64,000 bases of DNA, taken from the UHGV virus genome UHGV-0200554; one strand, 5' to 3'. The stretch's first letter is position 1; each line of letters starts with the position of its first letter. Below the pieces are notes generated by a model. It was not told the DNA's origin, searched no databases, and saw only the letters and a program-made list of their open reading frames with translations. The position numbers and the translations under genes are program-made. This DNA is from a virus. Below, piece after piece: positions 640 to 25,162 of the stretch.

Positions 640-2091
640 CTATTTAACGTTTTCAATCAAATCTATAGTTCTGCCAAAAGATGGCGTATAGTCTTTGTTA
701 CCACCTTCTGTCCTAATCCAGAGCGTATTATACTTATCCCAACCGTTGCTGTCAACCTCTTTTTCAAAACCTGATTCAAGAAACAGGTCAGTAAAGATAA
801 TAACATCCTGAACATCAGACAGATGTTTATCCAGATATTCAAACACACAACCTGCACGAGTACCGAACGTAGACTTGATCTGGTAGTCTGGCATCTGTGC
901 AATATTCTGGTGAGTGTATACCTGAACATCACCAACTTCTGTTGACCAACAGAACATCGTAACTTTAAACTCTTTATACAGGCTGCACAACCCGCTGATT
1001 TCTGAAGTGATACGTTTCAGAGTCCGTGGAGAGATAGAGCCTGATACGTCGAATGCCACCACTATATCAATCGTTTTCTCCTGGTTGCGACCTGGGAGAA
1101 TAACAGACTGGCGATTGTTGATAGCCCCTCTGCTACGCAATGTGTGAGTTAAAGCACCAGAGCGACGGGCCGGACGACGATAAGTCATATCAGCTTTCCG
1201 GTGTGACAACATACGTTGACGAATCACATCCAGATAGTTGATGATAGGCTTATTGCGATTCTTGATCCACTCACGCACCTGTGCCGGACCTTCACCACCT
1301 GCCGCTTTCATAGCAGCTTCCATCATGTCACCAGAGTCCTGCATTGCTGCATCTTTCTCTGCCTGAGTCATTGCTGGTTGGTTGCCTTTTTCGTAGCCCA
1401 TAGCTTCACTGAGGTTGTCAGACTGGCCTTGTCCGTCCCCCATGTGAGTATCTGTGGCTCGTAGACCACCGCCACTAGCTTTACCTGGTTGTTGCTGTTG
1501 CTGTTGTTGTCTTTCCAGGTCTGCATAAACTTTTTCAGTTATCCACCCGTGGTATTTCTTATCACAATAACAATATTCAAGAAATGCAAACGGCTGGCCT
1601 TTTTTCAGCTGTGTGCGAATCCCGTGTGGGAACATTGCACATGGCGGTTCGGCTAAATCTACCATCAGACCAGTATTAATAACGTGGTCAGCGGCCTGAT
1701 TAAACAGGTTGTGATCAGAGAAGGCTTTACCACGGCTGAGGTGATCAGCAATGATGTGACCTATCTCATGGCACAGGAGAAAAGCAACCTCTTTAAGCGT
1801 TTTAGGTGCATAGAAAGCGTCCAGCTGTTCTTTCATCTTATCATCGCACTTAGGCAGAATGATAGCACGGCGTTCCTGGCAAACACCTATGATGAACTCT
1901 GGATTGTAGTAAATCCGCTTATGGTCTGTGGCGATAGTGTCACACCATGTGTGGTTCTCAACAAATTGTAAGCCTGACAGGAGCACACCGTAGAAGCTCA
2001 ATCTTTCCATGAGCCACATGCGAGCACCCTGAAGCATACGTAGAGCTTCTGGTTTCTGTGCTAAAATCAGTTCTGAACTTCTTGCGTCCAC
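640..2091 (-). CDS. vWA-domain protein with HExxH zinc-metallopeptidase-like motif
   Basis: HEIGH motif in N-terminal half; MIDAS-like DVSGS motif (IVVAFDVSGSIS) in C-terminal half; GTG start with GGAGG RBS. Confidence 0.7.
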   Translation of the reverse strand: MDARSSELILAQKPEALRMLQGARMWLMERLSFYGVLLSGLQFVENHTWCDTIATDHKRIYYNPEFIIGVCQERRAIILPKCDDKMKEQLDAFYAPKTLKEVAFLLCHEIGHIIADHLSRGKAFSDHNLFNQAADHVINTGLMVDLAEPPCAMFPHGIRTQLKKGQPFAFLEYCYCDKKYHGWITEKVYADLERQQQQQQQPGKASGGGLRATDTHMGDGQGQSDNLSEAMGYEKGNQPAMTQAEKDAAMQDSGDMMEAAMKAAGGEGPAQVREWIKNRNKPIINYLDVIRQRMLSHRKADMTYRRPARRSGALTHTLRSRGAINNRQSVILPGRNQEKTIDIVVAFDVSGSISPRTLKRITSEISGLCSLYKEFKVTMFCWSTEVGDVQVYTHQNIAQMPDYQIKSTFGTRAGCVFEYLDKHLSDVQDVIIFTDLFLESGFEKEVDSNGWDKYNTLWIRTEGGNKDYTPSFGRTIDLIENVK

Positions 2092-7293: not shown

Positions 7294-9309
7294 ATGATTA
7301 TTAAAAGTGACCATAAAGAAGCAACCATTCTCGGTAAGAGTGAAGTTACCACAGGGACAATTGCGCTGAATGCTGAGACGTTTGGCCTGATTATCAAAGG
7401 TATTTACAAAGATCCTTTACTTGCTTCCTGCCGTGAGCCTATCTTTAATGCTGTGGATGCTCATGTTGAAGCGGGTCGTAAAGATGTGCCTATCAAGATC
7501 CATACACCAACCGACCTTGAGCCTTACTTCTCTGTACAGGACGAAGGCCTCGGCATGTCTGAAGAGACTGTACGCACAATCTTTATGACATTGGGCGACT
7601 CCACTAAGCGTCAGAGCAACGAATTGGTGGGTGCCAAAGGTATTGGTTCGAAAGCACCTCTGAGCAAGGTGGAAGCCTTTAACGTTATAAGCGTCTATAA
7701 CGGCACAAGAAGCGAATATCTTGTCTTTATGGACAAAGGTATACCGAAAGTCACTAAAACGCGTAGCGAGCCTTCTACGCAGCATAACGGCATCACAATC
7801 AGGTTCCCTGTGAACAAAAAAGATGTGTCTGCGTATCGCCATGCAATAGCTTCATGCCTGAACTATGCTAAGTTTCCGTTTGAGGTGTCGGATCCGATCA
7901 CCACACGGATGCTGGAGCAATTTAAAAGCAACATTGACTACACATACAAAAAAGATGGGTGGACTCTGTACATCTACCACGGCAATACTTGCTCTCTGGA
8001 AAGTCGTGTTGTGATGGGGCACCAGCCTTATCGTTCAGAGTATCTTGAATCTATGATAGATTATCCGCGTCTGGTGGTAGAGATTCCGATTGGTGATTGC
8101 GATATCAACCCTGGCCGTGAATGGACGATTGAAGGTGATGATGATGGTGGGTTCCTTGAACAACTGAAAGCCTTTGTGGACGAAGGTATCAGTAAACGTG
8201 GTGAAGAGATTGAAGTGCTGCTGAATAAAGCCACTTCTGCTATTGAAGCTCGCCGTATCATTAAAGAGTCTGGTGGCTTCTTCTCGCGTCTGGTAGGCTG
8301 GAAGTTTATGACTGCTAAATGGAAAGCCATAATGCAGGGGCATACTGTCCCAGTTATCAGTGAGTTGCCTGTGTTTGTAGGTGGTACTCGGATTGGCGCT
8401 AACTCTCTGAAACGAGATATGTACGGACCTTCTGAGTTTTCAGCAGGTCGTAAGCTGGTACTGAATGACGCAAATGGTAAATTCAACCGGATTAAATGTA
8501 ACTATCTGGCTAATGAGACTAGTCGCAACGTCTACTATGTAGAAGACCCATACCTGTCAGAAGAGTTGGCTAAGTATGTGGACGATCCATTCTACAGTGA
8601 CGTGCTGTTCCTGTTGTCTGAGCTGCCTAAGCCACCAAAAGACCAACGTCAGGCGAGCAGTACGTATCAGCCGGGTTATTTTGTCAAAAAGCTGGATGAA
8701 CACGGTTGGTTCTGCCGCGAACGCATAAGCAAGCAGGATTTTAAAGATATCAAGTATTGCATCCCGTATGATGGGGATATCCAAAGAGGCCGTAGTTGGT
8801 TGGGTGAGAACAATAACATCTACCAACAGGATCCGGTAGTCTTCCGTGAGGCCTTTGGTATCCCACAGGATGAAGATGTTTACATGGTTGCTGAAAGTCG
8901 CTTGACATGGGTGGCAGAAGATTGTAAGATTATCACAGAGGTTGATGCAAAACCTGTTCTGGAACAGGACGCCTGGAACTGGCTCTTGATGAGAGCTGCA
9001 AACACGACAGGTTACACAAAATACAAAATGCAACTGGGTAAACTGGGTGTGAAAATGTGCATTGACCCAGAAGTAAAAGAAAACGAGTATAAGGTTCGTA
9101 TGTGGATGGGATGCTACTCGTGGAAGTACAGAGATCTGGCTGACAGAGCAGATCATCTTGTGAACCTTCATGTGAAGTGTGCTCGCCGCTACATGGATGG
9201 TGTATACCAACGCTACCCGTTGCTGAAACGCATCCATGGGGATCACTGGGATAAACCGGAAGTTATTGAATATATTGAATTAATGAAAGCTAAGAAGGAG
9301 ACTGAATAA
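7294..9309 (+). CDS. GHKL (Bergerat-fold) ATPase domain protein
   Basis: N-box EPIFNAVDAH, G1 box DEGLGM, G2 box GAKGIGSKA near N-terminus; remainder unassigned. Confidence 0.6.
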   Translation: MIIKSDHKEATILGKSEVTTGTIALNAETFGLIIKGIYKDPLLASCREPIFNAVDAHVEAGRKDVPIKIHTPTDLEPYFSVQDEGLGMSEETVRTIFMTLGDSTKRQSNELVGAKGIGSKAPLSKVEAFNVISVYNGTRSEYLVFMDKGIPKVTKTRSEPSTQHNGITIRFPVNKKDVSAYRHAIASCLNYAKFPFEVSDPITTRMLEQFKSNIDYTYKKDGWTLYIYHGNTCSLESRVVMGHQPYRSEYLESMIDYPRLVVEIPIGDCDINPGREWTIEGDDDGGFLEQLKAFVDEGISKRGEEIEVLLNKATSAIEARRIIKESGGFFSRLVGWKFMTAKWKAIMQGHTVPVISELPVFVGGTRIGANSLKRDMYGPSEFSAGRKLVLNDANGKFNRIKCNYLANETSRNVYYVEDPYLSEELAKYVDDPFYSDVLFLLSELPKPPKDQRQASSTYQPGYFVKKLDEHGWFCRERISKQDFKDIKYCIPYDGDIQRGRSWLGENNNIYQQDPVVFREAFGIPQDEDVYMVAESRLTWVAEDCKIITEVDAKPVLEQDAWNWLLMRAANTTGYTKYKMQLGKLGVKMCIDPEVKENEYKVRMWMGCYSWKYRDLADRADHLVNLHVKCARRYMDGVYQRYPLLKRIHGDHWDKPEVIEYIELMKAKKETE

Positions 9310-10535: not shown

Positions 10536-11924
10536 GTGGGAGAACATACTTATGAGATTGGCACGGATGCCGCTCTCGCCGCTGTGTTATGTGGTGAAAA
10601 CGTCTATATCAGCGGACCTGGCGGGACCGGGAAGACTCATCTTTTACAAGATATACAGTCTTTACTTGGCGAATCCTGTATGGTTGTTGCCCCAACAGGG
10701 GTAGCCGCGCTTAACGCGGGAGGTGTTACCGCACACAGAGCTTTTGACCTGTCAGCAGGTGTGACTGTCCCAGAAGACTTCACAGAGATTCGTTCTAAAA
10801 CAGCAAAACCTCTCAAAAGTAAAGCGCTACGGACTTTAGTCATTGATGAAGTGTCTATGGTCCGTGCGGATAAGTTTGTGGAGATGGATAAGAAACTCCA
10901 GCACCTCCGTAAAACCAGTGAACCTTTCGGAGGTTTACAGGTGATCATGTTTGGGGATTTCTACCAGGCACAACCTGTTATCTCTACGCAAGAAAGGGAG
11001 GACTACTACAAATATTGGGATACTGACCTTTGTTTCTATACCCAATCGTGGAAAGATCTTAATCTGAAATGTGTTGCCCTTGTGGAGCAATTCAGGCAAG
11101 AGTCAATCCGGTTTGCCACAATGCTGAACTGCGTTCGTGAAGGTAGGAGAACAGGCGATGTGGTTAAAGAATTAAACTCTCGTTGTTACCACGGGGGGCA
11201 GGCCTCTGATGCTATCATCCTTTGCTCAACCAACAAAAGAGTGGAGGAGATAAACAGAGAGTTCTATGACCGTATTGATGGTGAGGAGAGGATGTATAAA
11301 GGGACGCTGAAAGGTAAATTCCCTCCCAATCAGCTACCTGTGGAAGATTTGATGTGCCTTAAAGTGGGAATGAAAGTCATGATTGTTGCCAACGACCTTA
11401 ATCCTAATCACAAAGTTCCTTGTTATGTTAACGGTTCTCGTGGCACAATATTAAAATTCTATGATGATAAGGTTGACATTGAACTAGATAATGGTACACT
11501 TGTGACTGTACCTAAAAAGCTATGGGAAAGCTACGAATACAAACCGTCCCTGAAAATGGATTGGAAGGCTCGTAAACAGAAAAGAGTGATTGAGAGAATA
11601 ACCACAGGGTCATTTGAACAGTTGCCTTTGAAGTCTGGATACGCGTACACAATTCACAAAAGCCAGGGTCTTACGTTAGATGCCTATAACTTGGATCTTG
11701 GTAAGAGAGGCGCATTCGCAGCGGGAATGACTTATGTTGCTCTTAGTCGTGCTAAGAAAATTCAGAGCATTACCCTCTTGCGTCCTGTCAGAGAAAGTGA
11801 TATTATTGTAGACCCAAGAGTGGTACAGTTTTACGCTGATACGTTCCCGGGGTTGGATGAAAAAGTAAGAAAAGATCTTGAAGTCAAAGTTAAAAAGGAG
11901 GCCGAGAATGAGTCTACTGGCTAA
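10536..11924 (+). CDS. SF1B DNA helicase (Dda/RecD/Pif1-like)
   Basis: Motif I GPGGTGKTH, motif Ia VVAPTGVAA, C-terminal YAYTIHKSQGLTLD. Confidence 0.8.
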   Translation: MGEHTYEIGTDAALAAVLCGENVYISGPGGTGKTHLLQDIQSLLGESCMVVAPTGVAALNAGGVTAHRAFDLSAGVTVPEDFTEIRSKTAKPLKSKALRTLVIDEVSMVRADKFVEMDKKLQHLRKTSEPFGGLQVIMFGDFYQAQPVISTQEREDYYKYWDTDLCFYTQSWKDLNLKCVALVEQFRQESIRFATMLNCVREGRRTGDVVKELNSRCYHGGQASDAIILCSTNKRVEEINREFYDRIDGEERMYKGTLKGKFPPNQLPVEDLMCLKVGMKVMIVANDLNPNHKVPCYVNGSRGTILKFYDDKVDIELDNGTLVTVPKKLWESYEYKPSLKMDWKARKQKRVIERITTGSFEQLPLKSGYAYTIHKSQGLTLDAYNLDLGKRGAFAAGMTYVALSRAKKIQSITLLRPVRESDIIVDPRVVQFYADTFPGLDEKVRKDLEVKVKKEAENESTG

Positions 11925-13585: not shown

Positions 13586-14320
13586 ATGAAGCAAGGTGTA
13601 GTGTGGGCTTTATTCAATGGCTCCGATATTGCTGTCAAACCCTGGGCTGATGCAGGGTATTTGTGCTTCTGCTTCAATGCAGAAGGGGCAGATCACGGGA
13701 GCTATGCAGAGGTAGTAGAAGAACATCCCAACATTAAGTACATAGATTACTGGATTGACCCGTGGTTCCCACAAGAAACCTTGGGGATGTATCCTGCACC
13801 AGATTTCATCCTGTCGTTTCCACCATGTACCCACTTAGCGGTATCTGGAGCAGCACATTTCAAGAAAAAATTACAAAAAGATCCGTTGATTCAGGTCAAT
13901 GCTGTAAAAGATGCACGTATTGCAGAAACATTGGGTAACATGTATAATTGTCCGTGGCATGTGGAGAACCCTGTTGGGGTTATGTCTAATATGTGGCGTA
14001 AACCAGACTACAAGTTCCATCCGTCTGAGTATGGTGGCTATCTGCCGGAAGATGACCAGAACCCGTGGTTCCCTGACCTGATTAAGCCCAGAGATGCTTA
14101 TCCGAAGCTAACCTGTGGATGGTTTGGGAATGGTTTTGTTGTCCCTGAGAAACGACCTGTGCCGCAGATTTGTGATGTAAATGGGTATTCTTTCCAACAT
14201 ACCAAACTGGGAGGAAAATCTCCTCGTACCAAAATGATCAGAAGCCTGACACCTCGTGGTTGGGCATTAGCCGTGTTTGAAGCCAACGAACCCGTTGTAA
14301 GGAGCAAACTCAATGGTTGA
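13586..14320 (+). CDS. C5-cytosine methyltransferase-like protein (short, atypical)
   Basis: Motif I-like LFNGSD, motif IV-like SFPPCT (PC-T instead of PCQ), motif VI HVENPVG (ENV); start ATG 13586 with GGAGGG RBS. Confidence 0.45.
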   Translation: MKQGVVWALFNGSDIAVKPWADAGYLCFCFNAEGADHGSYAEVVEEHPNIKYIDYWIDPWFPQETLGMYPAPDFILSFPPCTHLAVSGAAHFKKKLQKDPLIQVNAVKDARIAETLGNMYNCPWHVENPVGVMSNMWRKPDYKFHPSEYGGYLPEDDQNPWFPDLIKPRDAYPKLTCGWFGNGFVVPEKRPVPQICDVNGYSFQHTKLGGKSPRTKMIRSLTPRGWALAVFEANEPVVRSKLNG

Positions 14321-14984
14321 CTGGAGCAAATATTTCACCTACAGTGACGGTAAACTGTTCTGGGCGTATACCGCAAAAGCCGGAAGAGGCAGGGTTATAC
14401 ATCACGCAGGCGAGGAGGCCACAGGTACAGACACAGATGGCTATAGGGTGATAAGTGTGTCAGGTGTTGGACGTGTTAGTAGGCATAGAATAATTTGGGA
14501 GATGCATTACGGGGAGATACCTGAAGGCCTTGTTGTGCGGCACAAGAACGACATAGCAGGCGATGATAGGATAGAGAACTTAGTCCTAGGAACACAGGGA
14601 GATAATGTACGAGACATGATCTACAGTGACAAATTGAACATTAACAATACCTCAGGGTGTCGAGGTGTATGCTACCATAGGGGTGTAAAAAGATGGATTG
14701 CATCTGCTGGAGACATATATTTAGGATGTTTTAAGACAAAAGAGGATGCAATTACATGCAGAAAGTTATGGGAGGAGGGAAAATTCGTCCCGCAAGAATT
14801 AGATGTTAGAAATACCAGCGGTGTAACAGGGGTGTTCTATGTGCCAAGCTCTGGAAGGTGGAGAGTTAGAGTACAAAGTGGCAAAAAGAGAAAGAGCTAT
14901 GGTAGTTACAACACTTTAGAAGAAGCAAGAGCTGTAAGGGACAGAGTGATGAAAGAGATTGAGGAGTCTAAAGATGGGGAATAA
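14313..14984 (+). CDS. HNH homing endonuclease with two AP2-type DNA-binding domains
   Basis: HNH_3-like N-terminus (GYRVISV...RHRIIWE...HKN...DNRIENL-like), two AP2-like repeats (GVCYHRGVKRWIA..., GVFYVPSSGRWRVRV...). Confidence 0.7.
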   Translation: MVDWSKYFTYSDGKLFWAYTAKAGRGRVIHHAGEEATGTDTDGYRVISVSGVGRVSRHRIIWEMHYGEIPEGLVVRHKNDIAGDDRIENLVLGTQGDNVRDMIYSDKLNINNTSGCRGVCYHRGVKRWIASAGDIYLGCFKTKEDAITCRKLWEEGKFVPQELDVRNTSGVTGVFYVPSSGRWRVRVQSGKKRKSYGSYNTLEEARAVRDRVMKEIEESKDGE

Positions 14985-17900
14985 GTTTATACCCTCTGCG
15001 TATAGTCGTTATGGGGAACCGAACCCAGTTGCAACAAGATACAAAAGCGGAGGCAGTATGGCACGAGACTATCGTGATGAAAAAGAGGTTGAAACTGTAG
15101 AGACTGTTTTAGAAAATACTAAAATTGTCCCTGTTCCACAACAAAATATCGGACTGACGGCTGCACAATATTTCGGTGTGCGATCAGCATTGTCCCAAGA
15201 AGATGGTGTGACAGTCGTTGCAACATATTTCCCATATTACAACCGCTACGGCAATCTATCTGGCTTTAAAAAGCGTGATTGGTCTAAGCCAAAAGAGCAG
15301 AAAGGGCACTGGTCTGTAGTAGGCATTGTTAAGGCCAACAGCCAGTTCTTCGGTCAGAAAATGGTTGGTGAAGGCTCAGACCATCGTAAAATCATTGTCT
15401 GCGAAGGTGAAGGCGATGTTATTGCTGCGTGGCAGACTGAATGGATGATGGTCAGGAAAATAGCTACAGACCCGTCATCAAATAAGAAAGCTAAAGCGTG
15501 GGCACAAAGCGTTCTTGACGGTATTAAAGCCGTGCAGGATGGTGGTTCTGCTAAAGGTTTTCCCACAATTAACGTGGTAGGGCTTAATTGTGGTTGTGCG
15601 AATGCCGTAGACGCTTTTGCCAACAACGAGAAGTTTATTCGTGGCTTTGATGAGATTGTCCTGGCCTTCGATAATGACGCTGCAAATGATGTTGAGAAGC
15701 TAAAACATGTCACCAAAGGTGTTGAAGCCACTCACAATGTTGCAGCTTTCCTGATGGCTGACAACGTTTTCCATGTGCAGTATCCGAGCGAGGTAAATGA
15801 TCCAGAGGGTTACAAAGATATCCGTGATTTGTTCCAGGCTAAAAAGTATGATCAAATTCACGATATGTTCAAAAACCCGATCAAATACGTGCCAGACGCT
15901 GTAGCAGGCCTGAATGATTTCTCAATTGAAGATTTACGTAAAAAATCCACCAATGGTGTTGACATTGGGGCAGAGTTCCCTAAACTCCAGAAAATGTTGA
16001 AAGGTTTGCATAAAGGCACACTGGTCATGTTGACTGGCCCTTCCGGCGGTGGTAAGACTACGGTAGCTAAGAAGATTGAGCACCAGATAGCTAAATACCT
16101 GATGGATCCTACGGTGGCTAAAGCTGATGACTACGACCCCGAAGACAGGTTGTGTATGATTCACCTGGAAGAGGACCCAGAAGAAGCCATCAACTCGCTG
16201 TATGCTAACCAGCTGGGGTATGATATCAAGAATTTCATGGAGGACCCAAGCAAGTATCTGACCGAGCAGGAACACTTTGAAATCCACAAAGCCTGGGTTG
16301 ATGCTGATAAAATCAGAGTATTCCGGCACTTCGGTTCAATACCTGTAAACGACCTGATCACCAAGCTGAAACAGATGGTGTGCTTGTATCATTGTCGTTA
16401 CATCGTACTGGATCATCTGTCAATGGTTATTTCTGGTTTGAATGTAAAAGATGAGCGTAAAGAGCTGGACCTTGCAATGACGCAGCTTGCAGCATTCTGT
16501 AAGCAATTCAATGTGTTCATTTTGGTGATTGCACACTTACGTCGTACAGAGATTATCCCACCGAAGGATAAAGAAGGTAGGGCTTTACCGTTCTGGTATC
16601 CTGTCCGTAAAGAAAACCTTCGTGGTTGTGTTTCTGCGGACACAGAGTTTTTAACCCCGCAGGGGTGGAAACGCATAGATAACTATGCAGAAGGGGATTT
16701 GGTTGCGCAGCACGATGAAAATGGCGTAATGACTTTCGTAACCCCGAAAGCCTACATCAATCTTCCTTGCGAAGAAATGTGGCATGTTTCCAACACTCAC
16801 GTTGTAGACATGTTGTTGAGCGATGAACATCGTGTTGTATATGTGAATGACAGAACGCCAGATGTTTTCCGTACGAAAACCATGTTGGAAGTTGTCTATG
16901 ACCACAACAACAAGCCTTCAGGTATGCGTGGGAAAATACCTGCTACGTTCCTCACAGGGTGCAATGGGACGCTGGGGTTGACTGATGACCAATTACGCCT
17001 ACAGGTTGCTGTAAATGCTGATGGGACAGTTCTTACTGAGTCAACAGGAAGAGTGGCTGTGAGAATCAAAAAAGATCGGAAAAAACAACGTCTCGAGATG
17101 CTGCTGGAGAAAACAAACACCACTTATAGGCGTCTTGATTTGCACGGGGTGCACGAAGGACGCACAGAGTACCAATTTAAAGCACCGTGTGGGTATAAAG
17201 GTGTGACTGGGGAATGGTTTAATCTCAAACAACACGAGTTGGAGATTATCTGTGATGAGGTTATGTATTGGGACGGAGATTCTGTGAACAAAAACAGGGT
17301 GTCCACCATTAACAAACTTGAAGCGGACTTCTTACAGTTTGCCTACAGCGCCTGTGGACATAGAACATCTTTATCCATGAAGGAGAACAACAGTGGCTTT
17401 GGCGGTAGTTACAACTGTAAACCTTTGTACGAGGTAAATGTTTGCAATACTAAGTACATGCATATACGCAAAGGTAGTAATAACAAACCCTCTATTGAAC
17501 GTGTACCTTCCCCAGATGGACGTAAGTATTGCTTTACGTTACCGTCGGGTATGTGGGTGGCGCGCCGCAATGGGCATATTTTTATCACAGGAAATTCGGG
17601 GAGTATGGAACAACTCAGTTGGGTTGTCATAGGGGTAGAAGCAGAAGAGATGCCTGACAGGTCCCGTGGGCGTGTCCGTTTAGTTAGCCTAAAAAACAGG
17701 CCAGCTAAAACCTTGGGTATCGCTGATGTGCTGATTATGAACCCTGAGACTGGTAAATTCTCCGATGCCAGTGACTGGGTGTGGGATAAAGAGACAGGTT
17801 TCTTCCTGAACAAAGATGGGGATATTGTCTGGAGGCCACAAGATATGTTCGACAATGAAGAACATGTTGTTGTGGAAACTCCTGAAGGTAAGGTTACCGC

Positions 17901-18015
17901 CGATGTGAAACCTCAACCAAAATCTGTTGACGCAGAAGGGGAAGAAGATGATGGAGTGGATGATCAGAGTGTAATCCAACAGGAGTTCCCTGAGGATGAA
18001 GATTGTCCGTTCTGA
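14974..18015 (+). CDS. bifunctional DNA primase-helicase (T7 gp4-like), intein-containing
   Basis: TOPRIM motifs (IIVCEGEGD, VLAFDNDAAND), Walker A GPSGGGKTT, helicase motif split by intein; acidic C-terminus ending DEDCPF; ATG 14974 with GAGGAG RBS. Confidence 0.8.
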   Translation: MGNKFIPSAYSRYGEPNPVATRYKSGGSMARDYRDEKEVETVETVLENTKIVPVPQQNIGLTAAQYFGVRSALSQEDGVTVVATYFPYYNRYGNLSGFKKRDWSKPKEQKGHWSVVGIVKANSQFFGQKMVGEGSDHRKIIVCEGEGDVIAAWQTEWMMVRKIATDPSSNKKAKAWAQSVLDGIKAVQDGGSAKGFPTINVVGLNCGCANAVDAFANNEKFIRGFDEIVLAFDNDAANDVEKLKHVTKGVEATHNVAAFLMADNVFHVQYPSEVNDPEGYKDIRDLFQAKKYDQIHDMFKNPIKYVPDAVAGLNDFSIEDLRKKSTNGVDIGAEFPKLQKMLKGLHKGTLVMLTGPSGGGKTTVAKKIEHQIAKYLMDPTVAKADDYDPEDRLCMIHLEEDPEEAINSLYANQLGYDIKNFMEDPSKYLTEQEHFEIHKAWVDADKIRVFRHFGSIPVNDLITKLKQMVCLYHCRYIVLDHLSMVISGLNVKDERKELDLAMTQLAAFCKQFNVFILVIAHLRRTEIIPPKDKEGRALPFWYPVRKENLRGCVSADTEFLTPQGWKRIDNYAEGDLVAQHDENGVMTFVTPKAYINLPCEEMWHVSNTHVVDMLLSDEHRVVYVNDRTPDVFRTKTMLEVVYDHNNKPSGMRGKIPATFLTGCNGTLGLTDDQLRLQVAVNADGTVLTESTGRVAVRIKKDRKKQRLEMLLEKTNTTYRRLDLHGVHEGRTEYQFKAPCGYKGVTGEWFNLKQHELEIICDEVMYWDGDSVNKNRVSTINKLEADFLQFAYSACGHRTSLSMKENNSGFGGSYNCKPLYEVNVCNTKYMHIRKGSNNKPSIERVPSPDGRKYCFTLPSGMWVARRNGHIFITGNSGSMEQLSWVVIGVEAEEMPDRSRGRVRLVSLKNRPAKTLGIADVLIMNPETGKFSDASDWVWDKETGFFLNKDGDIVWRPQDMFDNEEHVVVETPEGKVTADVKPQPKSVDAEGEEDDGVDDQSVIQQEFPEDEDCPF
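16627..17595 (+). other. intein (about 323 aa) inserted in helicase motif of primase-helicase
   Basis: Starts with Cys after ENLRG, ends ...ITGN followed by Ser; removal restores LRG-SGSMEQLS matching the T7 gp4 DLRGSGALRQLS motif; possible degenerate LAGLIDADG-like segments inside. Confidence 0.7.
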
Positions 18016-18079
18016 TGCTTAACTGAGAGTGGGGAGAGCAGTACAGCCAACTCCCCCTTACATGTAAGGTATTAATAAT

Positions 18080-20866
18080 ATGGCGCTTTTTTGTTATGAC
18101 TTTGAGGCCTCAGGCTTGCTCGATGAGCCTGAACTGTACTACCATTGTGGACTGTTTAAACAGCACCACAAAAACAATTTCATGCTATTCCTGCCGCTAA
18201 ACGACAGGACCCATTACACAGAGGAAGATGTAGAAACAGCAAAACAATTTGCTCTCAATAAGCAGACAATTTACAAAAACTGTCAGGTGCGGGTTGCCGA
18301 CTTCGGGTATCTGGAAGAGTGGTTGACAGGACATTCTGATTGGTCACCAACAGCTCTTGCCTGCCACAACTGCTTTGATTATGACCAGATTTTGATGGAA
18401 AAACTGTCAGGCATTCATTTCGACCTGTTCGAAGATAAAGATTGCATGGGAACCATCAACGGTCACAGGGTTAACCTGTTCGATACTCTGCCGATGAGTC
18501 GTATACTGTGGCCTGATCGCCCGTTACCGAAGGGTTGCCCAGAATCAGTATTCAACCCGGTAACGAAGAAAAGTCAAGCTGTAGGTCCACACGGGTTGAT
18601 GGCCTGGGGCTATGCACTTGGCAACCAGAAAGTTAAGATTGATGACTGGCGCAATCTTCCACTCTGGAAATACGTAGACCGTGTGTGGGAAGACGTTATC
18701 ATCCAGGAATTGCTCTGGGACGAACTGATCGCCGAGTCCAAAGGGACATTCTACGGTAAATCTGACATGCAAAACTTTATGTATGATCCAGACAAAGAGA
18801 AACCTGGTGGATTCAAACAGATCACTTGGAAGTATGCTCTGCGTCGTGGGATGCTTCAGCACTTCCTGATGGGCTTACAGGCAAGACAAGGTGTTTATTT
18901 TGATATTGATGGGGCGATAGCTTTACGTCAGAAGTGTGACGACATGATGAAAGAGATCGCTGATCGTGTGGAACCGCAGCTGCCACTGAAAGAAATTTCA
19001 GAGGCCCAGAAGCCTAAGTTCCCACAGAAACCGTTTAATACGGATGGTAGTATCTCTTCTCACGGCTACAGCTGGTTGAAGAACAAACTGGGGTATCCAG
19101 TTAATGAAGCAGCTTTCGACTTCAAACCTGCACCTAAACGGGCTTTCAACAAAGATGGTAGTGTTAGTGCCACAGGTGCTAAATGGTGTGTAGAAAGAGG
19201 TTGCACCGATCCTGAAAAACAGGCAGACTTCCTGAGGGCAGCACGGTCAGAGGAAGCACCTAAACCTCTGCCGGATGACCTGATGCAACAGGCAATTAAG
19301 GATTTGCAGGATAAGAAAATGCCTGATTGCATGGTGCCTATGAGAATGAATAACCAGATGGATATCAAGCGTTATCTAATCTCTGTAGGCTGGCAACCAA
19401 CAATGTGGAGAACGAAAGATTTAACCCGTGATTACCACAAAAAACAGTTGCCGGATGCTGAAGTTGATGCTAAAGTAAGGGAGTATATGGATGAACTGGA
19501 AACATCTGAGTATCGTGCCCTGATCATCCGTGAACTGAACAAGGATGCACGATTCAAAATTTCAGAAGCGAAGTTTCTGAGTCGTAAGAACTCCCCGAGG
19601 GTTGAGCAGGAGGTGTTCGCTAAGTTCCGGCGTAAAGCCAGAGGACTACCAACATCCCCGCAGCTGAAAGATAGCTTCGGGCATTTGTGTCCTAACCTGG
19701 CAAGACTGCAAGGAGAGATGGCAAAAGATATTGTGTTCTGGCTGTCATTGCGTAACCGTAGGTCAGTACTTGACCCAATCAAGGAAGATAAAGTTGATAC
19801 CGGATTGTTGAATCATCCGAGATTGCAGATCGATCACCGCTTACCCGCAGAAAGCTCTGGTTTGACTGCTACCGGACGACAGAAGCATAAAATATGTGCC
19901 AACCAGCCTAAACCTTCACCAAAAGTTGTATTGGGTAAGGAGATGCGTAGCCTCTGGAAACCTGCTCCTGGTAAGTATCAGTTGGGGGTGGATGGTTCCA
20001 ACCTTGAACAGCTGATAGGTGCATGGGGTGCTTACGATTTCGACAACGGGGCGTATTACAGGATTATAAGCGAAGGGGACGCACATGCTTTGAACGCCAA
20101 AGCCTACTCTAAAGTTGTGGGCAGGGAAGTTTCCCGTGGTGATGGTAAACCAATCACCTATGGTGTGATGTATGGCGCTCAAAAGGATAAAGTAGCGGAT
20201 ATGCTCGACGTTGTGCCGGAGGTTGGTCAGCAGGTAATTGATGCATTCTGGGATACCAACTTCGGCCTGAAAGGTCGTAAAGAGGCACTTGAGAAATTCT
20301 GGGAGGCAACAGGTAAGAAATTTATCTATGCTTTCGATGGTCATGCCATCTGGACACGCTCTAAACACTCCTTGCTGAATGCATATCAGCAGAATGGTGG
20401 CGCTTCATTGTGTGACTTGGTAGGCTTACTGGTTCATCGCAACCTAGTGACCTTGAAAATAGATAATAAAACTTGGTATGACCTAGGTGTCAGAAGAATA
20501 ATTTATTACCATGACGAATTTCAGTATGAAATTCCAGATAATGGCTTATTTAAAACAGTTTATGAGTTTGATACTCTGGAAGAACTGGAAAAATTCAAAG
20601 CAGAGGAGGAAGCAAAAGGTCGTATCTTTACTGGCAACAAATACAAAAAAGCCCGTAAAGATGAAAATGGTGAAGAAGTAGTTGACAGCAACGGTAAAAC
20701 CGTGTATGATCCAATCATAAACGAAAACGGCAAATGCCAGTTGATTCATTGCAAGGTTGGTGAAATGGTTGTTAAATGCTTCCACCAGGCATCTCGCATC
20801 ATGAAAGTACCTTTCCAGATCACAGGTGAAGGTCTTGTGGGATACTCGTGGGGCGAATGCCACTGA
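18080..20866 (+). CDS. DNA polymerase, family A, with 3'-5' exonuclease domain
   Basis: Exo I YDFEASG at N-terminus; motif B-like KPITYGVMYGAQ; motif C YHDEFQYE; 928 aa. Confidence 0.85.
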   Translation: MALFCYDFEASGLLDEPELYYHCGLFKQHHKNNFMLFLPLNDRTHYTEEDVETAKQFALNKQTIYKNCQVRVADFGYLEEWLTGHSDWSPTALACHNCFDYDQILMEKLSGIHFDLFEDKDCMGTINGHRVNLFDTLPMSRILWPDRPLPKGCPESVFNPVTKKSQAVGPHGLMAWGYALGNQKVKIDDWRNLPLWKYVDRVWEDVIIQELLWDELIAESKGTFYGKSDMQNFMYDPDKEKPGGFKQITWKYALRRGMLQHFLMGLQARQGVYFDIDGAIALRQKCDDMMKEIADRVEPQLPLKEISEAQKPKFPQKPFNTDGSISSHGYSWLKNKLGYPVNEAAFDFKPAPKRAFNKDGSVSATGAKWCVERGCTDPEKQADFLRAARSEEAPKPLPDDLMQQAIKDLQDKKMPDCMVPMRMNNQMDIKRYLISVGWQPTMWRTKDLTRDYHKKQLPDAEVDAKVREYMDELETSEYRALIIRELNKDARFKISEAKFLSRKNSPRVEQEVFAKFRRKARGLPTSPQLKDSFGHLCPNLARLQGEMAKDIVFWLSLRNRRSVLDPIKEDKVDTGLLNHPRLQIDHRLPAESSGLTATGRQKHKICANQPKPSPKVVLGKEMRSLWKPAPGKYQLGVDGSNLEQLIGAWGAYDFDNGAYYRIISEGDAHALNAKAYSKVVGREVSRGDGKPITYGVMYGAQKDKVADMLDVVPEVGQQVIDAFWDTNFGLKGRKEALEKFWEATGKKFIYAFDGHAIWTRSKHSLLNAYQQNGGASLCDLVGLLVHRNLVTLKIDNKTWYDLGVRRIIYYHDEFQYEIPDNGLFKTVYEFDTLEELEKFKAEEEAKGRIFTGNKYKKARKDENGEEVVDSNGKTVYDPIINENGKCQLIHCKVGEMVVKCFHQASRIMKVPFQITGEGLVGYSWGECH

Positions 20867-20932
20867 TAAATCAATAACTTACGTAACATACTGGAGGGGA
20901 ATACTTCCCCTCCCCAATCAGGAGAGTTAGCC

Positions 20933-21184
20933 ATGACAGAACGTGAAGTAATCCCAGTAGTATGTGTTTACGCAGCAGGTGAAGATGACGGTTATCCACA
21001 CCTGGAAGGTTTATTTGTTGAAGGCCATGAGTACGTACTCGTCCGGTCAGAGGAAGAAGACGAAGAAGGGATCTACCTGGTTAAAGACGAAAGAGTACCG
21101 TTTGAATGGTCAGCAATAGAACAGGAAGATGGTGTGTGGACTGTCGAAGGTCTGGAGCTGATTGCAGAATTCGAAGAACTTTAA
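20933..21184 (+). CDS. hypothetical acidic protein
   Basis: ORF track; RBS AGGAGAG. Confidence 0.5.
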   Translation: MTEREVIPVVCVYAAGEDDGYPHLEGLFVEGHEYVLVRSEEEDEEGIYLVKDERVPFEWSAIEQEDGVWTVEGLELIAEFEEL

Positions 21185-21195
21185 GGGGCACCACA

Positions 21196-21417
21196 ATGGA
21201 AGACTGTATCTTAGTAAAAGCTAAATTCGTCAATCCTAGAGCATTTTGGTTTACAGAAGGTGGTACTTACGTACTCCAGAAGTCTCCTCAAATAGCTGGC
21301 AATTTAATAGTCATTGACGACGATGGTGAATCATGGTTCACAACTCCACAGTTTGACGGTACGTGGGAAGTAGTGGGCACTTACACTCACGCTGTATTCG
21401 AGGAGATAGAGGAATGA
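21196..21417 (+). CDS. hypothetical protein
   Basis: ORF track 21106..21417 trimmed to ATG 21196 (RBS AAGGGG). Confidence 0.45.
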   Translation: MEDCILVKAKFVNPRAFWFTEGGTYVLQKSPQIAGNLIVIDDDGESWFTTPQFDGTWEVVGTYTHAVFEEIEE

Positions 21418-21791
21418 AAGTTAAAGGCACAGAACACATAGAACGCGCTGTGGAGGTTGAACTGGATGCCCGTGAAGTGGGCGAACTCATCGACAACACA
21501 GCAGAAGAAGTGCTCCTGCATTCGATTCAGTGCCGTGCAATGCAACGTTTCTATGAACGGGTTGCAGGTTTTGAAGGCTCTTTTTGTGTGCGGCAGCGGC
21601 AGGGAGATAATGGTATACTTGTGTACCAACTGTGGAAAATTGATGCTGACTGGGACTACCACAATGATGTTGGCATCGATGAAAAAATAAAAGACTTGAC
21701 AACAGAGGAGGTTGTGGAGTATATTTACCTCCGTGGTTGGGTAGAGAACGCAATATTCCAGTTAAGAATTCCAGTTGGAGAAGCCAAATGA
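21414..21791 (+). CDS. hypothetical protein
   Basis: ORF track trimmed to ATG 21414 (GAGGAATGA overlap). Confidence 0.5.
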   Translation: MKVKGTEHIERAVEVELDAREVGELIDNTAEEVLLHSIQCRAMQRFYERVAGFEGSFCVRQRQGDNGILVYQLWKIDADWDYHNDVGIDEKIKDLTTEEVVEYIYLRGWVENAIFQLRIPVGEAK

Positions 21792-22045
21792 AAATTATTA
21801 TCAAAGAAGACAAACTGATTTCTGATGAAACTTTCCGTGATTGCACTGCTGGTGCAGTCTATGAAGCGAAAATGTGTGAAAATCCGCTAATTGCACTCTG
21901 CGAACAACTCGGTATCCACCTTGACGAAGAAGATATTCGTTACGCCGAAGAAGGTCTGCAATGTCTCCTCTTCCACGACGATAAAGGAGAGGCTGTGTAT
22001 TGCACTTTCAAAGACGTGGTTATTGTAAAACCTGAACATTATTGA
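21788..22045 (+). CDS. hypothetical protein
   Basis: ORF track trimmed to ATG 21788. Confidence 0.45.
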   Translation: MKIIIKEDKLISDETFRDCTAGAVYEAKMCENPLIALCEQLGIHLDEEDIRYAEEGLQCLLFHDDKGEAVYCTFKDVVIVKPEHY

Positions 22046-22054
22046 TATTAACTA

Positions 22055-22083
22055 TTGACAAGCGTGGCGGGGTTATGTATAAT
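22055..22083 (+). promoter_or_regulatory. sigma70-like promoter, consensus TTGACA-17-TATAAT, -10 in hairpin loop
   Basis: TTGACA 22055-22060, TATAAT 22078-22083; CGGGG...CCCCG inverted repeat brackets the -10. Confidence 0.6.
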
Positions 22084-22111
22084 AGCCCCGTTAACAAAGA
22101 GGAGAGCCAGA

Positions 22112-22369
22112 ATGAAAGCACAACGTGTCAAAGCTAAAGTAAAACGTTTCTGCCTTGAAGAAGACTGCGCATTTTGTGATTGTGAACTAGGTGTCATCTA
22201 TGATGCTATCATCAATCTGGATGACGAAGATGATCCTCAACTGGGCAAAGAATGTGTCCTGATCGACGGGCATGGTGATGATGTTTACTGCACAACAGCA
22301 GAGCTGGAAATCGTAGAAGAAGGTGAAGTCTACGAAACTACTTACACAGAACTTTTCCGTAGCTTTTAA
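22112..22369 (+). CDS. hypothetical Cys-containing protein
   Basis: ATG 22112 with GAGGAGAG RBS; CxxC pairs (CLEEDCAFCDC). Confidence 0.5.
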   Translation: MKAQRVKAKVKRFCLEEDCAFCDCELGVIYDAIINLDDEDDPQLGKECVLIDGHGDDVYCTTAELEIVEEGEVYETTYTELFRSF

Positions 22370-22381
22370 AGGTGCCACAAG

Positions 22382-22780
22382 ATGAAAAAACTTTGGGATT
22401 TAGACCTCTTCGATCTTACTGGGTTTGACGATTCATTCGGTGTTATCACAGTCCGTGATGGTGTGGCTGTGCTTAACTTGAATGGTCAGCAATTCCTGCT
22501 TGAAGATATGGCTTTGGTACGTGCAGATGACAATCCAAAAGCTGATCTGTTTGACCGTTTACAGCCGTTCAATTTCCGTAAAGGTACAAAAGCAGACCTT
22601 GATTGTAAGGTCAACGTGATGGTCACACAACAAGGTCCGTACCTGGTAATCTGCGCAGTAAAGAAAATGTGCAGCCTGAATGATCACGACCCACGGGCTA
22701 AAAACGATGTTATCATCCTCAAAGTGGGTGATGCGATGGAAGATTTGATGAATGCAACTGGAGGTACTGGTGAGGACTGA
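22382..22780 (+). CDS. hypothetical protein
   Basis: ORF track. Confidence 0.5.
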   Translation: MKKLWDLDLFDLTGFDDSFGVITVRDGVAVLNLNGQQFLLEDMALVRADDNPKADLFDRLQPFNFRKGTKADLDCKVNVMVTQQGPYLVICAVKKMCSLNDHDPRAKNDVIILKVGDAMEDLMNATGGTGED

Positions 22781-23072
22781 TTACGAAAATATGGATCCTG
22801 AAGACTTCCTGAAGATCTTACGCCGCGTAATGAACTCACAAAACGAGATCACTTTGGAAGATGAGTTACTTGCCTCTTACCTCGAAGAGGCTGGCGATGA
22901 GCTTCCAATCTATGCGGGTCCGGGGGGCATGTATGCTTTGTGGCGCAAGATAGACATTCTTGAAACAGGGAAAGATATGATTATCTGGCACCTGATCAAC
23001 AATGTTGGGGTCCCTGCATTTGACAAAGCGGTTGCAGAATTTTATCAACTTGACGAAGGCTACCCAGTATGA
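22770..23072 (+). CDS. hypothetical protein
   Basis: ORF track 22752..23072; start uncertain (GTG 22770 after GGAGG). Confidence 0.4.
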   Translation: MRTDYENMDPEDFLKILRRVMNSQNEITLEDELLASYLEEAGDELPIYAGPGGMYALWRKIDILETGKDMIIWHLINNVGVPAFDKAVAEFYQLDEGYPV

Positions 23073-23329
23073 AACGCTTAACAGACCATGTATTCAAAGA
23101 AGGTGACAAAATCGTATTCGATGAGTTAGGTCCTGGCGCTGAAGCATGTGAAAACCTGACAGTAGGTAAAGAGTATGAAGTTGTAACTCCTACTTACAAA
23201 CACACACAGCTGTTCGGTATTGATGCTGAAATCTTACTACCAGGTATGTTTGAAATCCGTGATGATGCAGGTGATCTGATCGTAGGCGTACTTGGTGACG
23301 GCCTGTGGGGTGTTGCACGCCCAGTGTGA
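23069..23329 (+). CDS. hypothetical protein
   Basis: ORF track; ATGA overlap. Confidence 0.5.
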   Translation: MKRLTDHVFKEGDKIVFDELGPGAEACENLTVGKEYEVVTPTYKHTQLFGIDAEILLPGMFEIRDDAGDLIVGVLGDGLWGVARPV

Positions 23330-23349
23330 TACTGTATAAACAATCAGTA

Positions 23350-23379
23350 TTGTTATTCCTGTAGGGAAGTGCTATAATG
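23350..23379 (+). promoter_or_regulatory. sigma70-like promoter with -10 TATAAT inside GC-clamped hairpin
   Basis: TTGTTA-18-TATAAT (23374-23379); GGGAAGT...ACTTCCC inverted repeat (23364-23388). Confidence 0.5.
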
Positions 23380-23425
23380 GTACTTCCCTTTAATACGTTG
23401 TTCAACTAATCGGAGATTTCCTATA

Positions 23426-23821
23426 ATGGAACAAATGAACGATCAAGAAACGGTGGCAATGAACGTGCCAAACGAAGAACAACCTCAAGAAGCTGTATTC
23501 TTAGGGTTATCACGAGATCAGGTAGCTTTGCTGGCTGTTCTCTCTTCCTTCTTCTCCAACCTTACCGAAGTCATGAAGCAACAAGATGCTGATCGACTCT
23601 TCCAGGCACTGGTTGAAGAACCAAATTACAGACGCTTAGATTATGCTTTAGGTTGGGTAGCTCGCAACCGGGATGATATCCTTGCTTTGGTGGGAACCTG
23701 CAACTTTGCACTGGGCCTACTGGCTAAAGTACAGGATACCTTAATCAAAGTCGGCTTCCAGGCTGGTGATCAGCAACAAGAAGCAGAGCAACCACAACAA
23801 ACTGAAGGAGACAAACAATGA
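23426..23821 (+). CDS. hypothetical protein
   Basis: ORF track; Q-rich acidic C-terminus. Confidence 0.5.
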   Translation: MEQMNDQETVAMNVPNEEQPQEAVFLGLSRDQVALLAVLSSFFSNLTEVMKQQDADRLFQALVEEPNYRRLDYALGWVARNRDDILALVGTCNFALGLLAKVQDTLIKVGFQAGDQQQEAEQPQQTEGDKQ

Positions 23822-25071
23822 GTGTTGTACAAGAATTCAAAAACCCAATGAATCCCCGTGAAACTATTCTCATGGCTCACGGTATCATCAAACGGGTAAG
23901 TATTAAACCTATCAAAGGGGCTGATCCTGAAACAGGCATCAAAACTACTGTGTGGCAAGGTAAGAAAATAGAATCCTCACACACTATTGCTCTTCTAATC
24001 GCTGAAGTGGATGAGAACGACAAACTGCTCCAGGGCGGTGAAGAGATGTGGGTTAGCATGGGCGATAAACTCCTGAAACCTGGTCATCAGGATTCTGTTA
24101 GCGTTAAGATTAATGACAAATGGGAAACTGTAGTACCTGGCTGGATTGTTAACATCCCGCTTAAATCCAACGAGTACAACGGTAAAACCTATTACAAAGG
24201 ATCTCTGGCTAAAATTGTTGTGTTAGGGGCTGGTGAAGTACCTGCAAGTGCTCCTAAAGCGCAGCAGAAAGGCCAACAACAGCCTAAACATGGTCAGGGT
24301 AAGCAACCACAAGGCAACCAACAAAAACCTGCTCAGAAAGGGGCTAATGACGTTTTACGCATTTATGGTACTATCACCGCCATTGATGGTAAATCCGTAA
24401 CCGTTGATGATCAGAAGATTGGTGTTGGTGTGATGGTTGTCAACAACCCAAATCAGTTGAAAGAGCTGGTTGTAGGTGGTCGTGTTGCAGCTGTATGCGA
24501 TACAGCGGGTAATGTCCTGAGTGGTTTTAAAGCATATCCACCACTGGAAAACAAAACACCTCGTAAGTCAACCTACGACCCTATTGGTGTGAGCACTGGT
24601 CATGCTCTTAATGCAATGCAAATTCTTCTGGATCGTGGATTGAATCCGGGGAGTACGACAGATTTAGGTATCGCAATGCAACTCCACACCTTGACAATTG
24701 ACCTTAAAATGGAGTATGCTAAGGCAACAGGGAATGAAGAGGATGCTGTTGGGGCAACTGTAGGTAATGCTGTACTTAATGCATGTCGCCGTGTTAACAT
24801 CGACAACCTACAGAATCTTGATTGTCTGTTCAAAGATATCAAAGCTGAAGCCAATAACGTTCTGGTAAATCTGGCTGAACCTTTGTATCAGTGGATCAAA
24901 ACTGGCAGCACAACCGCTGTTTCTAAACAGGGAACCAAACAGGAACCTGTGCCGGAACAGAAGCCAGAACCGCAACCGGAGCCTCAGCAGAATACTGTAG
25001 ATGCTCCACCAGTAGAAGAGGAGGAACCTGATCCTACAGAGTGGGCCTTTGATGAAGACATACCCTTCTGA
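23818..25071 (+). CDS. SSB-like protein with acidic C-terminal tail (DEDIPF)
   Basis: C-terminus EEEEPDPTEWAFDEDIPF resembles the E. coli SSB tip DFDDDIPF and T7 gp2.5-type acidic tails; Gln/Gly-rich linker; N-terminal fold unverified. Confidence 0.5.
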   Translation: MSVVQEFKNPMNPRETILMAHGIIKRVSIKPIKGADPETGIKTTVWQGKKIESSHTIALLIAEVDENDKLLQGGEEMWVSMGDKLLKPGHQDSVSVKINDKWETVVPGWIVNIPLKSNEYNGKTYYKGSLAKIVVLGAGEVPASAPKAQQKGQQQPKHGQGKQPQGNQQKPAQKGANDVLRIYGTITAIDGKSVTVDDQKIGVGVMVVNNPNQLKELVVGGRVAAVCDTAGNVLSGFKAYPPLENKTPRKSTYDPIGVSTGHALNAMQILLDRGLNPGSTTDLGIAMQLHTLTIDLKMEYAKATGNEEDAVGATVGNAVLNACRRVNIDNLQNLDCLFKDIKAEANNVLVNLAEPLYQWIKTGSTTAVSKQGTKQEPVPEQKPEPQPEPQQNTVDAPPVEEEEPDPTEWAFDEDIPF

Positions 25072-25135: not shown

Positions 25136-25162
25136 AAGGCCACCTTCGGGTGGCCTTTTTTA
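25136..25162 (+). terminator. rho-independent terminator
   Basis: AAGGCCACC-TTCG-GGTGGCCTT hairpin followed by TTTTTT. Confidence 0.75.

Follow-up and report, generated by a model that had tools for sequence, protein, structure and literature searches.

The stretch analysed here (the window) is 64,000 nucleotides of the virus genome UHGV-0200554. Within it we examined a replication locus in which two proteins, a primase-helicase and a 417-amino-acid protein that is a candidate SSB (a protein that binds single-stranded DNA), end in similar acidic tails closed by Pro-Phe. Coordinates count from the first letter of the window, and its features lie on the + strand unless the other strand is named. 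The locus belongs to the early/replication genes of a phage that is a distant relative of the rV5-like myophages (Vequintavirinae). The primase-helicase gene (ATG 14974..18015) is followed by the gene for a 928-amino-acid family A DNA polymerase (18080..20866), and the SSB-like gene (23818..25071) lies inside the same replication cluster, 3 kb 3′ of the polymerase. The best phage matches of the 417-amino-acid protein are ~60% identical, and similarity at the DNA level is patchy.

The primase-helicase measures 1013 amino acids with its intein and 690 amino acids after splicing. Its open reading frame (ORF) is also open from a TTG at 14959; ATG 14974 is the likely start, because homologues without the intein (689–690 amino acids) align from there. 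The protein consists of a TOPRIM region and a superfamily 4 (SF4; DnaB_C) helicase domain, and it matches DnaB_C (E 3e-11), AAA_25 and, weakly, Toprim_4 in Pfam, as well as PHROG 239 (DNA primase/helicase, E 6e-142). When the spliced helicase was searched against PDB sequences, the matches were T7 gp4 (E 3e-19), Twinkle and, apart from these, a short stretch of an unrelated glycosidase. An N-terminal Cys4 zinc ribbon was not found, there being no Cys in the first ~140 residues that precede the TOPRIM motif E-G-E-G-D. This zinc-ribbon-less N-terminus (14974..15400) puts the ability of the enzyme to prime, or its mode of priming, in question.

The 323-amino-acid intein (16627..17595) is located within helicase motif 4, between LRG and SGSMEQ, and its removal restores the motif (LRGSGS..EQ). 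The intein starts with Cys, ends in ...TGN followed by Ser, and has no penultimate His. Comparison with two intein-less homologues, P0059 (93% identical) and P0066, shows the insertion to be exact, and close homologues of the helicase occur both with and without it. No Pfam family matched the intein; PHROG matches to intein-bearing PhoH, RNR and terminase families span residues 552–884 of the ORF starting at TTG.

The only PDB sequence matches of the polymerase are to T7 DNA polymerase, gp5 (E 9e-13). A BLASTP comparison with gp5 from the T7 genome record (E 6e-16) aligned the exonuclease, the palm and fingers, and the C-terminal ...W..CH, with conservation of the C-terminal His (...WGECH vs. 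...WAICH in gp5). Its PHROG matches, 8888 and 17, are DNA polymerases. Since the polymerase matches gp5 and the spliced helicase matches gp4 and Twinkle, the replication module is of the T7 type by homology. At the place of the T7 thioredoxin-binding loop, the polymerase carries a longer, different insertion. This insertion of ~70–130 amino acids (18980..19350, residues ~300–420) contains two to three repeats of K-P-x-F-N-x-D-G-S-x-S; it is present in the relative CR3, and part of it is missing in shorter relatives.

Acidic tails of the primase-helicase and the 417-amino-acid protein

The sequence-only reading of this locus had singled out two acidic ends, PEDEDCPF on the primase-helicase and AFDEDIPF on the product of the gene at 23818, and translation confirms both. 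The primase-helicase ends in ...QEFPEDEDCPF; its acidic C-terminal tail, DAEGEEDDGVDDQSVIQQEFPEDEDCPF, spans 17929..18012, with the tip EDEDCPF at 17992..18012. The 417-amino-acid protein ends in ...EWAFDEDIPF, followed by TGA TAA. Its tip (AFDEDIPF, 25045..25068) closes a disordered tail (residues 368–417, 24919..25068) in which P, E and Q are frequent and the predicted local distance difference test score (pLDDT) stays below 50. Only two of the 373 ORFs in the window (stop-to-stop, at least 60 amino acids, both strands) combine an acidic stretch with an xPF end, and these are exactly the helicase and the 417-amino-acid protein.

Both tails are conserved in their families. Run against 1.84 billion cluster representatives (50% identity clusters), a family profile returned 216 members of the SSB-like family with E ≤ 0.001. 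P416 and F417 are invariant in an alignment of 28 family sequences that reaches down to 26% identity, and among the listed representatives of at least 220 amino acids a PF end is found in 105/133 and an aromatic end in 120/133, with the tail consensus D-(D/F)-(F/D)-D-D-D-[ILV]-P-F. For homologues of the helicase, the corresponding counts are 100/117 and 113/117, and the consensus is D-x-D-x-D-[STCE]-P-F; in more distant homologues PF is lost, and F or Y mostly remains at the end.

The two kinds of tail can be compared within single genomes, helicase vs. SSB-like protein: DDDCPF and DDDIPF in CR3, DDDTPF and DDDIPF in KE23, and DNDTPF and DDDIPF in 4MG. The contigs of the distant SSB-like homologues P0055 and P0048 did not extend as far as the helicase in the 10 kb covered, and the pairs leave them out. 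Position –3 differs systematically between the families, being small or polar (S, T, C or E) in helicases and I, L or V in SSB-like proteins. The consistency of this difference suggests graded affinities.

The C-terminal tip of E. coli SSB (SSB-Ct), DFDDDIPF, is a hub for SSB-interacting proteins, and bacterial SSB is a homotetramer that wraps single-stranded DNA (ssDNA). A closeness of the tail of the 417-amino-acid protein to this tip had been pointed out from the letters of the window, and it is borne out by profile comparison. With hhalign, the last 26 residues alone align to E. coli SSB, at residues 153–178 (probability 94.5%, E 7.6e-8); the match to the tail of 1eqq in PDB agrees with the E. 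coli SSB sequence used there. That match (1eqq being E. coli SSB, E 0.21) was the sole one when the family profile was searched against PDB. In relatives with Salmonella, Klebsiella, Acinetobacter or Pseudomonas as hosts, the end is (PP)MDFDDDIPF, and the tail is identical to the SSB C-terminus over 9–12 residues. Judged by its sequence, the SSB-like tail and the C-terminal tip of gamma-proteobacterial SSB are one and the same module.

Early proteins of phages often have acidic C-termini, and several other ORFs of the window end in acidic runs, which raises the question of whether the resemblance is a coincidence between low-complexity ends that share no function. An xPF after the acidic stretch is confined, in the window, to the two ORFs under study. 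In both families, Pro and Phe vary little or not at all even between deeply diverged members, and in relatives the same cassette, composed of an endonuclease gene and a short peptide appendix (described below), follows the PF of either gene. Because the likeness is conserved across both families, it is not due to chance; a coincidence appears extremely improbable, and we regard it as effectively refuted by this conservation.

Family and predicted fold of the 417-amino-acid protein

The 417-amino-acid protein matches PHROG 4477, a family of unknown function, over its full length (residues 1–417, E 8.4e-122), and a phi92-like homologue matches the same PHROG. Pfam, PF00436 included, gave no match to the protein or to the 28 members of its family, although E values as high as 1 were allowed. 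A relation to T7 gp2.5 was not found either by hhalign (probability 0.2%) or as a match to Pfam (PF21265) or PHROG 112. The T7-like replisome logic proposed in the sequence-only reading is supported in part, by the T7-type homology of helicase and polymerase; it does not extend to the 417-amino-acid protein as a gp2.5 homologue, and the tip is of the bacterial SSB type. For the tails themselves a T7-like logic is plausible.

The sequence-only reading had named an OB fold as a check on the SSB-like character of the protein, and structure prediction gives an OB-type barrel. The AlphaFold model has a mean pLDDT of 72.7, with domains at ~73–95. Domain 1 (residues 1–140, 23818..24237) is predicted to be an OB-type beta barrel with conserved aromatic positions at W78, W102 and Y126. 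A disordered linker in which Q, G, P and K predominate (residues 141–178, 24238..24351; pLDDT <50 over residues 141–177) leads to domain 2 (residues 179–240, 24352..24537), a small OB/IF1-like barrel of the order b1-b2-b3-helix-b4-b5. Domain 2 is an insertion in part of the family (27% column occupancy) and is absent from phi92-like homologues. Domain 3 (residues 255–362, 24580..24903, pLDDT 84–95, occupancy 86%) is a four-helix bundle with near-invariant G261, H262, N265, H290, G312 and G316. The bundle resembles no known SSB domain; oligomerisation or partner binding would be a guess at its role. Across 131 representatives, the OB barrel makes up the conserved core of the family together with the helical bundle and the tail, and phi92-like phages have a short form of 316–318 amino acids.

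The top Foldseek matches in PDB are all OB folds, none of them significant (E ≥ 0.016), with PriB, RPA, Stn1 and DUF2815 among the OB-type matches. The matches to IF1 and proteasome Rpt OB domains (probability 0.97–1.0, E ≥ 0.016) were assigned to domain 2 by size only. A Foldseek search of BFVD returned uncharacterised members of the family alone. Taken as a prediction, the OB fold of the 417-amino-acid protein is supported with moderate strength.

The predicted architecture resembles that of E. coli and gamma-proteobacterial SSB (PF00436) in its OB fold, its disordered linker (G/Q/P in those proteins) and its acidic tip, and differs from it in lacking the PF00436 signature and in having an extra four-helix bundle and, in the rV5-like phages, a second small barrel. 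It shares an OB fold and an acidic tail with a terminal aromatic residue with the gp2.5-like SSBs (PF21265/PHROG 112; Enc34 ORF6, DUF2815), to which it is unrelated in sequence and from which it differs in domain content.

A protein with these properties might also be an adaptor, a helicase loader or a recombination mediator, with the real SSB supplied by the host or encoded elsewhere in the genome. In that case the OB-like barrels would serve for contacts with proteins, and the tail resembling SSB-Ct would connect the protein to pathways that depend on SSB. The moderate fold scores would fit such a role, as would the conserved four-helix bundle, whose invariant His/Asn/His-type positions are in no known SSB, and the window comprises 64 kb of a ~140-kb genome. 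The layout of a disordered linker and an acidic tip, with the last 26 residues close to E. coli SSB, is however SSB-like and supports the SSB candidate, and the conserved aromatics W78, W102 and Y126 of domain 1 also count for an ssDNA-binding protein. The rV5 genome paper lists a ligase, a polymerase, two helicases and no SSB (PMC3606486), a gap that likewise speaks for the 417-amino-acid protein, as does the place of its gene among the replication genes; a few GenBank records label the gene as a putative SSB.

Modules from metagenomic relatives bear on the same question. In a distant relative (helicase 36% identical), a 232-amino-acid gp2.5-like protein (PHROG 112, E 1.6e-6) is encoded in the same cluster, 3′ of the adjacent family A polymerase (L015 14328-15026), and it ends in SEDDLDDDIPF. 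A gp2.5-like SSB thus occupies the place after the polymerase that the 417-amino-acid protein holds in the window, which counts for a replicative SSB and against a mediator or loader, an assignment that we consider unlikely. On a second metagenomic contig, the same position is taken by an unclassified 261-amino-acid beta-rich protein ending in EEFDEEVPF (L014 14882-15667). The helicases of these two modules have no PF tail and end in ...DGSF and ...QHGY. In these T7-type modules, the cluster 3′ of the polymerase carries different folds with the same kind of tip, and the tips on L015 and L014 imply that a bacterial-type tip and T7-type machinery are not alternatives.

Proposed docking partners of the tails

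In T7, basic patches of gp5 bind the tails of gp4 (two patches) and of gp2.5, and the tail of gp2.5 together with its last Phe is needed for polymerase binding (PMC12593628; bioRxiv 10.64898/2026.02.22.705581). The sequence-only reading had drawn on this docking of acidic, Phe-ended tails, and its account agrees both with PMC12593628 and with the T7 genome, where gp2.5 ends in ...EEADEDGDF and gp4 in ...DWSNDTDF. The locus in the window resembles T7 in its gp4 and gp5 sequence homologues and in having two acidic, flexible tails with a C-terminal Phe, like those of gp4 (…DTDF) and gp2.5 (…DGDF). It differs from T7 in that the SSB candidate is not a gp2.5 homologue, the tips are D-D-x-P-F and not D-x-D-F, the polymerase is without the thioredoxin-binding loop, and the helicase is without a zinc ribbon and contains an intein.

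The reading that we favour, with moderate confidence, is that the 417-amino-acid protein is the replicative ssDNA-binding protein of a T7-type replisome, and that its tail and that of the helicase are handles for one kind of pocket, with the polymerase as the likeliest partner. The DDLDDDIPF end of the gp2.5-like protein in the distant module counts for this reading. The SSB tail and the six tails of a helicase hexamer would serve as flexible docking handles, and the pocket would be a hydrophobic hole for Pro-Phe rimmed by basic residues. As both tails would fit one kind of pocket, the helicase and the SSB-coated lagging strand could compete for the same partner and hand it over. By analogy with T7, this shared partner would most likely be the phage polymerase (18080..20866), and the outcome would be the retention of spare polymerases at the fork and their hand-off on the lagging strand. 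A folding back of the SSB-like tail onto the OB domain may, in addition, regulate how DNA is bound, as is the case for T7 gp2.5 and E. coli SSB. Given that the SSB-like tip and the host SSB tip are identical, host SSB-interacting proteins would probably be bound too.

This last step, taken on its own, leads to another explanation, in which the SSB-like tip copies the host SSB-Ct and serves mainly to draw host SSB-interacting proteins onto phage ssDNA or, by titration, to keep them off host DNA, the helicase tail is a weaker version of it acting at the fork, and the polymerase is not the partner. The host proteins that interact with SSB include RNase HI, ExoI, RecQ, PriA, Topo III, UDG and chi. 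The 26-residue hhalign match to E. coli SSB (E 7.6e-8), the identity over 9–12 residues in the Salmonella, Klebsiella, Acinetobacter and Pseudomonas phages, and the lack of a thioredoxin-binding loop in the polymerase are all in keeping with such a role. Lambdoid phages encode no polymerase themselves, and their canonical SSBs bear the same tip together with the appendix. In phage HK620, the C-terminal hexapeptide NDYPPF of the SSB is needed to recruit the phage recombination protein Sak4, and not a polymerase, onto SSB-coated ssDNA (PMC5928155).

The HK620 protein resembles the present candidate in its PF-ended tail and differs from it in being a canonical tetrameric bacterial-type SSB whose partner is a recombinase and not a replisome protein. 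Two observations stand against a purely host-directed tip: the helicase tail keeps PF but never the I, L or V of the SSB tip, and a DDDIPF tip on a gp2.5-like SSB within a T7-type module indicates that tip and machinery go together. Recruitment of host proteins is compatible with docking on the polymerase and does not exclude it; as an account in which the polymerase plays no part, it seems possible but rather doubtful.

Several observations weigh against the reading that we favour. A counterpart of the T7 thioredoxin-binding loop (gp5 residues 262–338, in the thumb, with a basic patch) was not found in the alignment of the polymerase with gp5, and this loop is one of the two docking sites for the T7 tails. 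In the front basic patch of gp5 (K587, K589, R590, R591), just two basic residues align, the polymerase having GKKF opposite KRRW of gp5 (K589–R591), and both also occur in relatives in which the helicase lacks the PF tail. Because position –3 differs systematically, the two tails may not share a pocket. The 15-amino-acid appendix that follows PF in rV5 and many relatives means that a free Phe carboxylate is no universal requirement; this is hard to reconcile with a strict ‘terminal Phe carboxylate’ mechanism and weakens it. For the globular part of the 417-amino-acid protein, no relation in sequence to either bacterial SSB or gp2.5 could be detected, and at a predicted template modelling score (pTM) of 0.35, the AlphaFold model does not fix how the domains are arranged. 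The binding of ssDNA, the identity of the partner and the competition between the tails are what we infer from these comparisons.

Appendix, neighbouring genes and implications

In many relatives, PF is followed by a conserved 15-amino-acid appendix of the form AP(I/V)GLQY....(I/L)(H/Y)(A/V/C)(L/I/F), for example APIGLQYANHAIYVL; in the SSB-like protein of rV5 the peptide is APVGLQYGKSRIHAL. The appendix is carried by SSB-like proteins (including that of rV5 proper, in a cluster of 533 members) and by helicases (KE23, GAP31 and Klebsiella phages), and it also occurs on canonical phage SSBs (epsilon34 gp35, mEp235 and Vibrio phages). Loci with the appendix are L016 2881-3538, L001 2520-3167, L002 2525-3005 and L012 2370-2884, and also L003, L009, L010 and L011. 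Its coding sequences show many synonymous differences while the amino acids are kept, which indicates purifying selection on the peptide. The motif strings were not found in the literature searched.

An artefact of ORF calling, or the mere overlap with an endonuclease gene, was considered as the origin of the appendix and rejected, since it occurs without any endonuclease gene (in alia, KB57, ABPH49 and epsilon34) and its changes are synonymous with the residues kept. The SSB-like allele of the window has no appendix. An appendix hidden behind a stop codon that is read through was likewise rejected: IPF is followed there by TGA TAA and unrelated sequence.

Compared with the window, a close relative carries the appendix and a gene for a 204-amino-acid zinc-finger endonuclease as one insertion of 658 nucleotides, whose site is precisely the stop codon that follows IPF. 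In rV5-like relatives the two come as one such cassette, the endonuclease being a zinc-finger homing endonuclease with a homologue in bas50_0089 of DrSchubert. Overlap between the appendix and related endonuclease genes is seen behind the helicase tail in KE23 and behind the SSB-like tails in DrSchubert and PsgM04F; no Pfam family matched the tail-adjacent endonucleases. We read the appendix as an old, functional extension of SSB tails, which endonuclease homing with co-conversion of the flanks copies to other tail-coding 3′ ends. A further proposal, which we put forward tentatively and with low confidence, is that the D-D-x-P-F tip is a portable, switchable module, that the appendix masks or re-targets it, and that a selfish element homes to the tail-coding 3′ ends of two replisome genes.

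A gene for an endonuclease with HNH_3 and AP2 domains (14313..14984) lies directly 5′ of the primase-helicase gene, overlaps its start, and probably encodes a free-standing homing endonuclease. In T7, too, an HNH gene, 3.8, stands just before gene 4. About ten small ORFs (20933..23329), most of them in PHROGs of unknown function, lie between the polymerase and the SSB-like gene, followed by a 131-amino-acid ORF (23426..23821). Several of the small ORFs have strongly acidic ends, such as ...FEEIEE. Downstream of the SSB-like gene, a GC-rich hairpin read by eye from the sequence, ggccaccttcgggtggcc (25138..25161), is followed by tttttt and looks like an intrinsic terminator. Elsewhere in the window are genes for a GHKL-type ATPase (7294..9309), a PIF1-like helicase (10536..11924) and, on the – strand, a DUF2201 metallopeptidase/VWA protein (640..2091).

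These results propose an SSB role for a large family without a Pfam model (216 clusters at 50% identity) and supply a candidate SSB for the rV5-like and phi92-like phages, which are widely used in phage therapy and biocontrol. The sharing of an SSB-Ct handle by a gp4-type helicase and an SSB candidate links the two best-studied acidic-tail systems, those of T7 and E. coli SSB, and in the model of one pocket with two competing tails, the competition could control how polymerases are retained and handed off at the fork. If the proposal of a switchable tip were true, the appendix would add a new layer of control to the SSB interaction hub, and it might act as a pro-tail removed by proteolysis, as another docking motif, as a degron, or as a cap that conceals the tip from host partners or defence sensors. 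Through their tips, these phages are possibly plugged into the host SSB interactome, which would be relevant to host takeover and to those defence systems by which phage SSBs are sensed.

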